Shown here in pieces: positions 20,259 to 64,000 of a stretch of 64,000 nucleotides of DNA. The position numbers were made by a program, and so were the translations under genes. The stretch is taken from the NCBI GenBank assembly GCA_000146465.1, contig CP001950.1, one strand, 5' to 3'. Within the stretch, counting starts at the first letter, position 1, and each line of letters begins with the position of its first letter. A model generated the notes under the pieces. That model did no database searches. It had not been told where the DNA came from and was given only the letters and a program-made list of their open reading frames with translations.

Positions 20259-20285
20259 TTTCCATAGCCCATCCACAATGAAAAA

Positions 20286-20403
20286 GATTACAGCACCCGG
20301 GATTCCCGAGTGGTCTCCCGCCTCAGTACTATCCGGGCTCGCACAGGCTTAACTGCGGAGATCTGACGAGTTCCGGTGCTTTTCTGTGGATATGGCCGTA
20401 ATC
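20286..20403 (-). rRNA. 5S ribosomal RNA (118 nt), with a T5 terminator at 20281-20285
   Basis: The minus-strand sequence GATTACGGCCATATCCACAGAAAAGCACCGGAACTCGTCAGATCTCCGCAGTTAAGCC...GATAGTACTGAGGCGGGAGACCACTCGGGAATCCCGGGTGCTGTAATC matches eukaryotic 5S nearly block for block (UACGGCCAUACC...GUCUGAUCUCGGAAGCUAAGC...UAGUACU...GGGAGACCGCCUGGGAAUACCGGGUGCUGUAGGC). Helix I is a 9-bp closing stem (GAUUACGGC/GCUGUAAUC). A TTTTT run follows. Confidence 0.9.
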
Positions 20404-61703: not shown

Positions 61704-61988
61704 ATGGACATACTGGATGCTGAGGAAAGTGATGTTGATTTAATCGAGCTTCAAGGAGAGGTTGAGAATATGGAGGCCTTTGATGGGAGGCTCAACAAGG
61801 AGCTTGTTCAGCTTGAGTTTGGAACATGTGTTCTTCACGGAAGAAAGATTGACAAAGAGTTTAATATCATTGAGACAGACGTCTGCAACGGAAGGCCTTG
61901 TTTAAAAGTCATAAAGAAGGTTAAATGTGTATATTTATTTGATAAGCCTCCTAGGTATAGAAGCTCAGGCCTAGGGCGTGGAAACTAA
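61704..61988 (+). CDS. Small hypothetical protein (94 aa). Its 3' end overlaps the UBA3 stop by 4 bp on the opposite strand.
   Basis: Acidic N-terminus, then a small beta-rich domain. No motif. Confidence 0.3.
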   Translation: MDILDAEESDVDLIELQGEVENMEAFDGRLNKELVQLEFGTCVLHGRKIDKEFNIIETDVCNGRPCLKVIKKVKCVYLFDKPPRYRSSGLGRGN

Positions 61989-62837
61989 GCATCCGTGTTG
62001 CACACAATGCATTTTTCGTCTCTGTCTAAAATCAGCTTTTCCAAAGTAATATTCTTCTCCCCGCTGTAGAATATGAAGTCGTAGTGCAGGTTTGTTGCAT
62101 CTATCAACCCGCATGCCAAGCTTGCACACACAGAGTTAATAAAACACACATTCGGAATTATCTCGTCAAACATCCCAACAACATCAAATGCATTTACTTT
62201 CAGATTCTCCTCTGCAAGAGCATTGAATTCATTGATTATTTTCTTGATCTTTTCCTCCCTACTTCCCGGCTCCTCTCTCCTGAGCTCTACCAAGGACCGG
62301 AGTGTTTTCTCTCTGTTTTCCGGTGTTATCTTCTTTGGCAGAGATCCCAAAGAACATATCTCAGGGCCGTCTTCTCTGTATAACTCCCTGATACAATATA
62401 AACATGAAGAGCCTCTGTAGACTGCCTTTGCATGTGCCCTGTATCCACTTATTCCACAGTCGATAAGAAGTTTACACTCAGATTTTCGGAACATCAGGTT
62501 CAGGTTCATTCTTCCTTCGATGTTGTCAAGAGCCCCAAAGATCACGTCGTACTGATTCAAAACATTGATAGGAACCTCCTCTATCCTTCGTACTAGGAAG
62601 CTTGCTCTACCTCCATACTGCTTGTTTATAAACTCGGCTGCCTTCTCTGACTTGTATTTCCCTTGATCCTCCTTTGTAAACATGAAAAGCCTGTGGAGAT
62701 TTGTCAGATGAATTCGGTCATGGTCAACCACAAGTATCTTGCTCGCCCTTCCACCCAAAAGCTTCAGTAGCTCCATTCCAGTTCCTCCACATCCTGAAAT
62801 TAGTTACTCGCCACTTACCAACTAGAACTATCCTCAT
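61985..62837 (-). CDS. UBA3: NEDD8-activating enzyme E1 catalytic subunit (UBA3-like), with a 25-nt intron. Exon 1 is 62819-62837 (ATGAGGATAGTTCTAGTTG). The intron is 62794-62818. Exon 2 is 61985-62793.
   Basis: The spliced N-terminus MRIVLVGCGGTGMELLKLLGGRASKILVVDHDRIHLTNLHRLFMF...KSEKAAEFIN aligns with UBA3 (KVLVIGAGGLGCELLKNL...[20 protein letters not shown]...KAEVAAEFLN). The Rossmann GxGGxG is only completed by exon 1. The catalytic Cys context is SSCLYCIRELY. The intron is GTAAGTGGCGAGTAACTAATTTCAG. Confidence 0.75.
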
Positions 62838-62909
62838 AAAGGGCATAGGCAAAAGACATTTCACATTCAAGACATACTCATTTTTATTTGAGACTCTCAT
62901 GTCAATGTG

Positions 62910-63968
62910 CTAAAAGGTCTTGAGCACATCTGGATACATCTTCATTATCTTTTCCTGTACATCAATGAGAATTAAGGCTTGATAAACAAGAAACAGCTCG
63001 TCATAGCTTACCGCACATTTCAGAGCTTCCTCATAAACATGCCTCCCGTCCTTATCGTTTCTCCCAAGGAGAATCCCTCCTAGATACACATAAGGCTTAA
63101 AGAATCTTCTATCGGCCTCAATTGCAAGCCTGAAGTATTTTTCGGCCAATTCGGCTTCGTTCTTTGTCTGTGCAGCTATCCCTTTGAGCAGAAGAAATCG
63201 AGGATCCTTCTGGAAATGCTCCTCAAAGGTTGACATCACCATCTCCAGTCTCGCATCCTTGTTCCTAATGTAGTATTCACAGGCAATAGACAGGATACTG
63301 ATACTAAGTGGATGGGCTTCAAGTGCTCTGTTCAGGAACTCCTGTGCTCTTTCACTTCTTCCATGCCCCACCTCATAGATTATCCTGTCTACATACAGAA
63401 AGTCATGGTTTTCACATTCTAGTGCCATGTCAATGAACTTCTCATACAATTCATGGTTCTTGAGATTGAGATGGATCTTGGATGCATAGAATAGAACGGA
63501 GACGCTTTTGCTGTTCTTGGACACAAAGTCTTCTATGTCCATAGGTGTATCTCCGTGAAGAGTTTTAAGATACTCCCGGAGGCTGATTGAAAAAATCATC
63601 TTTTCGTTCTCTAGTAGAGAAACAGCTTCCATGTCCTTTCCCCTTACATGGACTATTCCTGCAACCACAAACCTTGATATACTGTCATCTCTCTTCTCTG
63701 CCTTCTCAAAGGCCTCATCGTACTTCCCACCTCGAATAAGCCTAACCAACTCGTCATTTACAAAAGACTCGCTTTCAAACAAATCAGGAAAGGTTGCGAA
63801 GAAGTTTTCATATGAAATCTTGGACGGGCATGCCTCCCTTGTACCTGCCATCTTCCTGGCCTCGGCCTCTGCTTCCAACTTCAAAATCTCCTGTGCAAGC
63901 TTTCTATACTTCTCGTCCTTTGTCACAAGCCCGCACAAAAAGGCATCGCAAAGGGTCTCTCTCCTCAT
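62910..63968 (-). CDS. TPR-repeat protein (may extend beyond the window end)
   Basis: Repeated 34-residue TPR-like helices (YFRLAIEADRRFFKPYVYLGGILLGRND, etc.). Confidence 0.5.
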   Translation of the reverse strand: MRRETLCDAFLCGLVTKDEKYRKLAQEILKLEAEAEARKMAGTREACPSKISYENFFATFPDLFESESFVNDELVRLIRGGKYDEAFEKAEKRDDSISRFVVAGIVHVRGKDMEAVSLLENEKMIFSISLREYLKTLHGDTPMDIEDFVSKNSKSVSVLFYASKIHLNLKNHELYEKFIDMALECENHDFLYVDRIIYEVGHGRSERAQEFLNRALEAHPLSISILSIACEYYIRNKDARLEMVMSTFEEHFQKDPRFLLLKGIAAQTKNEAELAEKYFRLAIEADRRFFKPYVYLGGILLGRNDKDGRHVYEEALKCAVSYDELFLVYQALILIDVQEKIMKMYPDVLKTF

Positions 63969-64000
63969 CTCCAGAGCCCTGTGGCATTCGTATCTTAGCC

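Follow-up and report, generated by a model that had tools for sequence, protein, structure and literature searches.

A predicted 25-nt mini-intron near the 5' end of a UBA3-like E1 gene in Encephalitozoon intestinalis

The window analyzed here, a stretch of 64,000 nt, aligned to E. intestinalis contig JBLUPL010000020.1 (GCA_051312815.1) with 0 mismatches over the 4,800 nt compared. Its G+C content is 41.6%, and a value of 41.4% has been published for E. intestinalis (PMC4355639). Near the end of the window, the minus strand carries a gene for an E1-like protein, in which exons of 19 and 809 nt (828 nt, or 275 codons plus the stop) are separated by a putative 25-nt intron (Table 1). Upstream of it lies a TPR-repeat gene, for which an ORF of 352 aa was called from an ATG at 63968. 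Because no stop closes this frame before the window edge and the protein is annotated with a greater length, the TPR gene extends past the end of the window. A search with Rfam over the window detected the 5S rRNA gene and nothing else, and a tRNA search of the window found none; three 5S genes have been reported for E. intestinalis (PMC4355639).

Table 1. Positions of the E1-like gene, its putative splice signals, and neighboring features in the 64-kb window
Feature	Position	Strand	Remarks
Complete 5S rRNA gene	20285-20403	-	Rfam RF00001, 97.6 bits
Convergent 94-aa ORF	61704-61988	+	
Exon 2, 809 nt	61985..62793	-	Includes stop TAG 61987..61985; residues 7-275, ThiF/adenylation domain
Candidate catalytic-Cys codon TGT	62354..62356	-	Cys153 (EICSLGSLP); aligns with human UBA3 PMCTIASMP, Cys216 in crystal numbering
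Predicted spliceosomal intron, 25 nt, GTAAGTGGCGAGTAACTAATTTCAG	62794..62818	-	Phase 1; from the sequence and orthologue comparison
3' AG of the intron	62795..62794	-	
Branch-point-like CTAAT	62803..62799	-	Putative branch A at 62800; motif 4 nt ahead of the AG
5' splice site GTAAGT	62818..62813	-	Within the 25-nt intron of the E1-like gene
Exon 1, 19 nt, ATGAGGATAGTTCTAGTTG	62819..62837	-	Start codon 62837..62835; codons for M-R-I-V-L-V, then base 1 of Gly7
In-frame ATG	62844..62846	-	9 nt 5' of the annotated start; use would add M-P-F; absent from all orthologues
AATAAA	62883..62888	-	In the 72-nt spacer, 3' of ATG 62900
TPR-repeat gene, 3' part	62910..64000	-	Stop TAG 62912..62910; annotated 476 aa in E. 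intestinalis

Removal of the intron unites the two reading frames into a 275-aa protein beginning MRIVLVGCGGTGMELLK. The junction (62819|62793) joins G|GA to form Gly7, and the ATP-binding GxGGxG loop across it reads VGCGGTG. The ORF called without splicing has 263 aa (62776..61985, MELLK...), and its Met directly follows the G-C-G-G-T-G loop. Upstream of this ATG the frame still reads L-I-S-G-C-G-G-T-G, without a start codon, and the nearest in-frame stop is a TAA (62806..62804) inside the intron. The earlier note on this DNA had described the ORF as starting inside the nucleotide-binding motif and had proposed the same junction with the E1 motif restored, all of which agrees with the spliced product; it had also placed a TAA immediately upstream of the ORF, and the stop is there, although 9 codons away makes "immediately" a loose description.

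If the intron is retained, reading from ATG 62837 frameshifts and ends after 37 residues, and initiation at ATG 62776 yields a product without the nucleotide-binding loop. Splicing would complete the loop, which only the spliced mRNA would encode, and given these two outcomes splicing would be required for an active enzyme. The Pfam ThiF profile (PF00899), searched against the protein as the earlier note had suggested for a check, scored 85.2 bits with the spliced product versus 66.5 bits with the unspliced one, a gain of 18.7 bits, and its match began at position 21 rather than 45. Similarly, the PDB alignment with human UBA3 opens at the Met of 62837 and continues uninterrupted over the junction (mrivlvgcggtgmellk versus cKVLVIGAGGLGCELLK).

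The spliced 275-aa product is identical, residue for residue, to ADM12211.2, a "ubiquitin activating enzyme E1-like protein" of E. intestinalis ATCC 50506, and to the further E. intestinalis records KAL7345038.1, KAL7346984.1, and KAL7348933.1. UniRef names the sequence NEDD8-activating enzyme E1 catalytic subunit, and the same protein sequence is found on five E. intestinalis contigs. The annotated gene, which starts at window position 62837, is 853 nt long and specifies 275 aa; therefore, the 25-nt intron is already in the annotation. Because product, span, and start all agree, the proposed exon-intron structure is the existing public annotation, the gene is the same as that of ADM12211.2 without any difference, and the feature is known and ordinary. 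As a discovery it carries little weight, since GenBank already has the intron together with the spliced product, for E. intestinalis as well as for related species. The original annotation of the E. intestinalis genome from 2010 contained only 14 spliceosomal introns (PMC4355639), and the ".2" of the accession suggests that this one was added in a later revision.

We compared orthologous loci over the region of exon 1, intron, and exon 2. The 19-nt exon 1 has a counterpart in all related loci compared, and an intron of 23 to 28 nt follows it at the identical phase-1 position in nine taxa: E. intestinalis, E. cuniculi, and JGI 3300073837 (25 nt each), E. hellem, an E. romaleae-like contig, and SRR21633403 (26 nt each), Ordospora colligata (24 nt, with a GTATGT donor), SRR29713749 (23 nt), and SRR21023581 (28 nt, with a CTAAC branch motif). 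The ends of the intron are conserved (GTAAGTG ... YTAATTTnAG) and the branch-like motif is kept as YTAAT or CTAAC in all nine, whereas the middle differs in both sequence and length. Each of the nine introns, if retained, shifts the frame or brings in an in-frame stop, leading to a truncated reading. The gene order (TPR gene, E1, convergent 94-aa ORF, Elf1 zinc ribbon, 214-aa ORF, and RNase PH) is maintained throughout.

The intron is also annotated in several of these relatives. Gene spans at NCBI are 853 nt for E. cuniculi M970_090870 (25-nt intron), 854 nt for E. hellem CP119070.1 (26-nt intron), and 867 nt for 280 aa in O. colligata CWI42_100320 (24-nt intron), and the E. romaleae orthologue XP_009265239.1 is a 275-aa protein. 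With the E. intestinalis gene these four share the 19-nt exon 1, the phase-1 position, the splice signals (5' GTAAGTG and 3' YTAATTTnAG, apart from the Ordospora donor), and the synteny from the TPR gene through E1 and the 94-aa ORF to Elf1; they differ in the intron middle and length, and their proteins are 54 to 74% identical to the E. intestinalis E1. The central claim of the earlier note, that a 25-nt intron splits the E1 gene, is thus borne out by the identity of the spliced product with ADM12211.2, by the annotated span, and by the intron that eight other taxa carry at this position.

Two loci lack the intron. In one (L007; DRR353006, 1501-1540), the sequence reads ATGAGAATACTCCTAGCAG|GATGTGGAGGG, which is exactly the predicted spliced junction, and a more distant one (L011; SRR31913113, 1501-1570) is likewise intronless. 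The exact junction in the first would fit cDNA-mediated intron loss. Viewed together, the orthologous loci record one non-ribosomal mini-intron kept across Encephalitozoon and Ordospora and two losses, a pattern that fits models of reverse-transcriptase-mediated loss.

The splice signals themselves could have arisen by chance, so we scanned both strands of the 64 kb for a strict pattern (GTAAGT N6-20 YTAAY N2-5 AG). The single match was at the site in the E1-like gene; in shuffled windows 0.23 matches were expected, and 19 of 100 shuffles contained at least one. The motif alone is weak evidence because shuffles match this often, and it is the placement and conservation of the intron that are decisive. 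A relaxed scan of the whole window (GT[AG][AT]GT ... NTAAY ... AG, up to 90 nt) returned 18 raw matches, among which we found no other convincing intron; the remaining matches join no ORFs sensibly. An alternative donor at 62877, which would give an 84-nt intron, was discarded because it would remove the conserved exon 1.

These results bear directly on whether there is any splicing here at all. The GT...AG could be fortuitous, with the 263-aa ORF from ATG 62776 as the true product, or the locus could be a frameshifted pseudogene or an assembly error. About 19% of shuffled windows do contain the strict motif by chance, and prokaryote-style gene callers do report the 263-aa ORF (P0001), but that product would lack the family-invariant GxGxxG loop. 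Moreover, the identical position, conserved signals, and variable middle and length in nine taxa, the intronless relative with the exact junction, and the single protein sequence on five E. intestinalis contigs all argue against it, and we regard this explanation as barely credible. A pseudogene or assembly error in particular was rejected because five E. intestinalis contigs carry the product and because the exon-intron structure is shared between species.

Short GT-AG introns with a GTAAGT-type donor have been described for Encephalitozoon (PMC3629993), and introns outside ribosomal protein genes are a documented class there with many members (PMC3629993, PMC6349667). The earlier note had called a spliceosomal intron in a non-ribosomal gene rare in such reduced genomes, and this documented class is a caveat to that view. 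The E1-gene intron has the GT-AG ends, the GTAAGT donor, and a branch-like motif near the AG, and its 25 nt fall within the class range of 22 to 76 nt; retention breaks the frame, removal restores a conserved protein, and the position is common to the orthologues. None of its features differs in kind from those of the short spliceosomal introns of the genus, and judged by its sequence it is a typical Encephalitozoon mini-intron. Katinka 2001 and Lee et al. 2010 are reportedly further sources on these short introns.

In E. cuniculi, RNA-seq confirmed the splicing of all annotated introns (Grisdale et al. 2013, PMC3629993), and we infer from the sequence comparisons that the intron is likewise removed in E. 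intestinalis. Short Encephalitozoon introns are often spliced from <20 to 50% of transcripts, most from <50% (PMC3629993; for background, Whelan et al. 2019, PMC6349667), so much of the E1 mRNA may stay unspliced. Judging from how the locus tag M970_090870 is numbered, ECU09_0870 is probably the E. cuniculi orthologue. The supplements of Grisdale 2013 mention this locus in the expression table alone, where its FPKM values during infection are 93.6, 126.2, and 120.4, and a full-text literature search for ECU09_0870 found no paper.

Three in-frame ATGs lie 5' of the intron, at 62837, 62846, and 62900, which are 72, 63, and 9 nt, respectively, past the TPR stop. The earlier note had listed two ATGs in addition to the first, of which the one at 62844-62846 is present; the other, at 62868-62870, is a TTG (Leu codon), and the third ATG is at 62900 instead. 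Its placing of the exon 1 start 9 to 25 nt past the TPR stop also does not hold, as the conserved and annotated start is at 72 nt. ATG 62837 is invariant among the orthologues and is the only conserved candidate start. A C-rich motif abuts it (GCCCTTT here; CCTCCCC, CTCCCTC, CTCCCTT, and CTCACCC in relatives) and resembles in sequence the "CCC-like" signal reported 5' of microsporidian start codons (PMC2803860). The AATAAA in the spacer probably serves the TPR gene as its poly(A) signal; AATAAA or ATAAA is found at the equivalent relative place in the orthologous spacers.

Translation from ATG 62846 or 62900 would give a protein of 278 or 296 aa. Both codons share the frame of exon 1 and are separated from it by no stop, but neither is conserved in any orthologue, whereas 62837 is invariant; the stretch homologous to UBA3 opens with the Met of 62837, the probable TPR poly(A) signal sits between 62900 and 62846, the CCC-like signal is directly ahead of 62837 (PMC2803860), and all public annotations start there. 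Use of an upstream ATG is thus very improbable, and 62900 was rejected because it is unconserved and lies 5' of an AATAAA. Several lines favor the predicted start at ATG 62837.

The spacer (62838-62909, minus strand) also contains a conserved GTGAAATGT/TTAAA-like element about 25 to 30 nt ahead of the start. This element, the AATAAA, and the C-rich motif all recur in the orthologous spacers, which suggests that a terminator and a promoter may be squeezed into 72 nt.

Pfam matched the spliced protein with ThiF alone, and the E2_bind domain (PF08825) was not found in it. Residues invariant in the orthologue alignments include G7, G9, G10, and G12 of the loop, Asp96, Arg101, and the cysteines C137/C140, C153, and C268/C271, with C137/C140 and C268/C271 forming two CxxC zinc motifs. 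In an AlphaFold model the mean pLDDT was 78.4, falling below 50 at residues 146-156, around Cys153. Lys129, also invariant among the orthologues, aligns with Arg190 of UBA3, the ubiquitin-excluding gate documented by PDB entries 3DBH, 3DBL, and 3DBR; the residue here is thus basic, though a Lys in place of the Arg.

The names given to the orthologues conflict: "sumo-activating enzyme subunit 2" (E. hellem CP119070.1), "ubiquitin activating enzyme E1-like," "NEDD8-activating protein uba3," and "hypothetical protein" are all in use. We built a profile solely from the microsporidian orthologues and scored it against UBA3, SAE2/UBA2, and UBA1. It aligned with UBA3 at 106.4 bits over the full length (positions 2-273), whereas SAE2/UBA2 reached 81.7 bits over the N-terminal half only (positions 2-140) and UBA1 63 bits. 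Foldseek searches with the AlphaFold model placed UBA3 chains at all of ranks 1 to 13, with an rmsd of 7.5 to 8.2 Å versus 11 to 14 Å for SAE2. Because both the profile and the fold comparisons rank UBA3 first, UBA3-like, the label also chosen in the earlier note, is the best-supported one from sequence and model alike, and the SUMO name given to the E. hellem orthologue seems the less probable of the two.

That name nonetheless represents a reading to be weighed, in which the protein is the catalytic subunit of the SUMO E1 (an orthologue of UBA2/SAE2), with an unchanged gene structure and a different modifier. The NCBI record of the E. hellem orthologue carries it, and SAE2 chains are significant in the sequence and fold searches; human SAE2/UBA2 (1Y8Q_B) has the same E1 adenylation fold and is the second-best match. 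Opposing it are the profile comparison, in which SAE2 scores lower and matches over the N-terminal half only, the poorer structural fit, the invariant Lys129 at the Arg190 gate position, and the UniRef, JGI, and Ordospora annotations of the family as NEDD8 E1. We consider the SUMO assignment rather unlikely and the naming conflict resolvable in favor of UBA3-like.

Human UBA3 (1TT5_B, 1R4M_B, 3DBL) is the best match in both sequence and fold, at an identity of about 23 to 25%. The two proteins share the adenylation domain with GxGGxG, the two CxxC motifs, the position of the catalytic Cys, and a basic residue at the gate position, which is Arg190 in the human protein and Lys in that of E. intestinalis. 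They differ in length (463 versus 275 aa), and the E. intestinalis protein has neither the N-terminal extension nor the C-terminal UFD/E2_bind domain. In every microsporidian orthologue the chain stops shortly past the second CxxC, by only a few residues, whereas a canonical UBA3 (P0015) runs about 100 residues further. Because this E2-binding domain, a defining feature of UBA3, is absent, the protein is a minimal UBA3-like E1 and not a verified NEDD8 E1; its specificity for NEDD8 we infer from the similarity to UBA3. A search of the literature on neddylation in microsporidia found nothing relevant.

Based on the above, we are highly confident that the locus encodes a small UBA3-like E1 catalytic subunit of 275 aa, the E. 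intestinalis member of its orthologue group, and that its coding sequence is split after nucleotide 19 by a 25-nt mini-intron. In the proposed working of the gene, the reduced microsporidian spliceosome would recognize the GTAAGT 5' splice site, the CTAAT branch site, and the 3' AG. It would pair with GUAAGU, use the A of CUAAU at 62800 as the branch point, an assignment suggested by analogy with yeast UACUAAC, and cleave after the AG at 62794. Together with a ULA1-like partner, the enzyme would most likely adenylate a NEDD8/Rub1-like modifier and activate it as a thioester, with the identity of the modifier presumed from the UBA3 likeness.

A further proposal concerns the UBA3-like E1 of both Encephalitozoon and Ordospora. 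Since it has no ubiquitin-fold (E2-binding) domain, it might recruit its E2 in a noncanonical manner, and the 5' mini-intron, probably spliced inefficiently, might have been kept as a throttle on the amount of active enzyme. At least two related lineages are without the intron and presumably unharmed, which speaks against a throttle, and we consider this combined proposal speculative and unlikely.

For annotation, the practical consequence is that ORF-only or prokaryote-style calling shortens the E1 gene to 262 to 271 aa, with loss of the ATP-binding loop, and that several entries in large collections are affected. Truncated records of 235 to 271 aa (P0001, P0004, P0005, and P0007 from Logan assemblies, P0010, P0012, and P0013) start at or after the Met that follows the GxGGxG loop; P0012 is an NCBI Ordospora record of 237 aa.

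At the other end of the E1 gene, the convergent 94-aa ORF, for which Pfam gave no match, overlaps the gene end at 61985 by 4 nt. The two stops are interlocked, as CTAA yields TAA when read in one direction and TAG when read from its complement, and the annotations of E. intestinalis, E. cuniculi, and E. hellem all show this 4-nt overlap.
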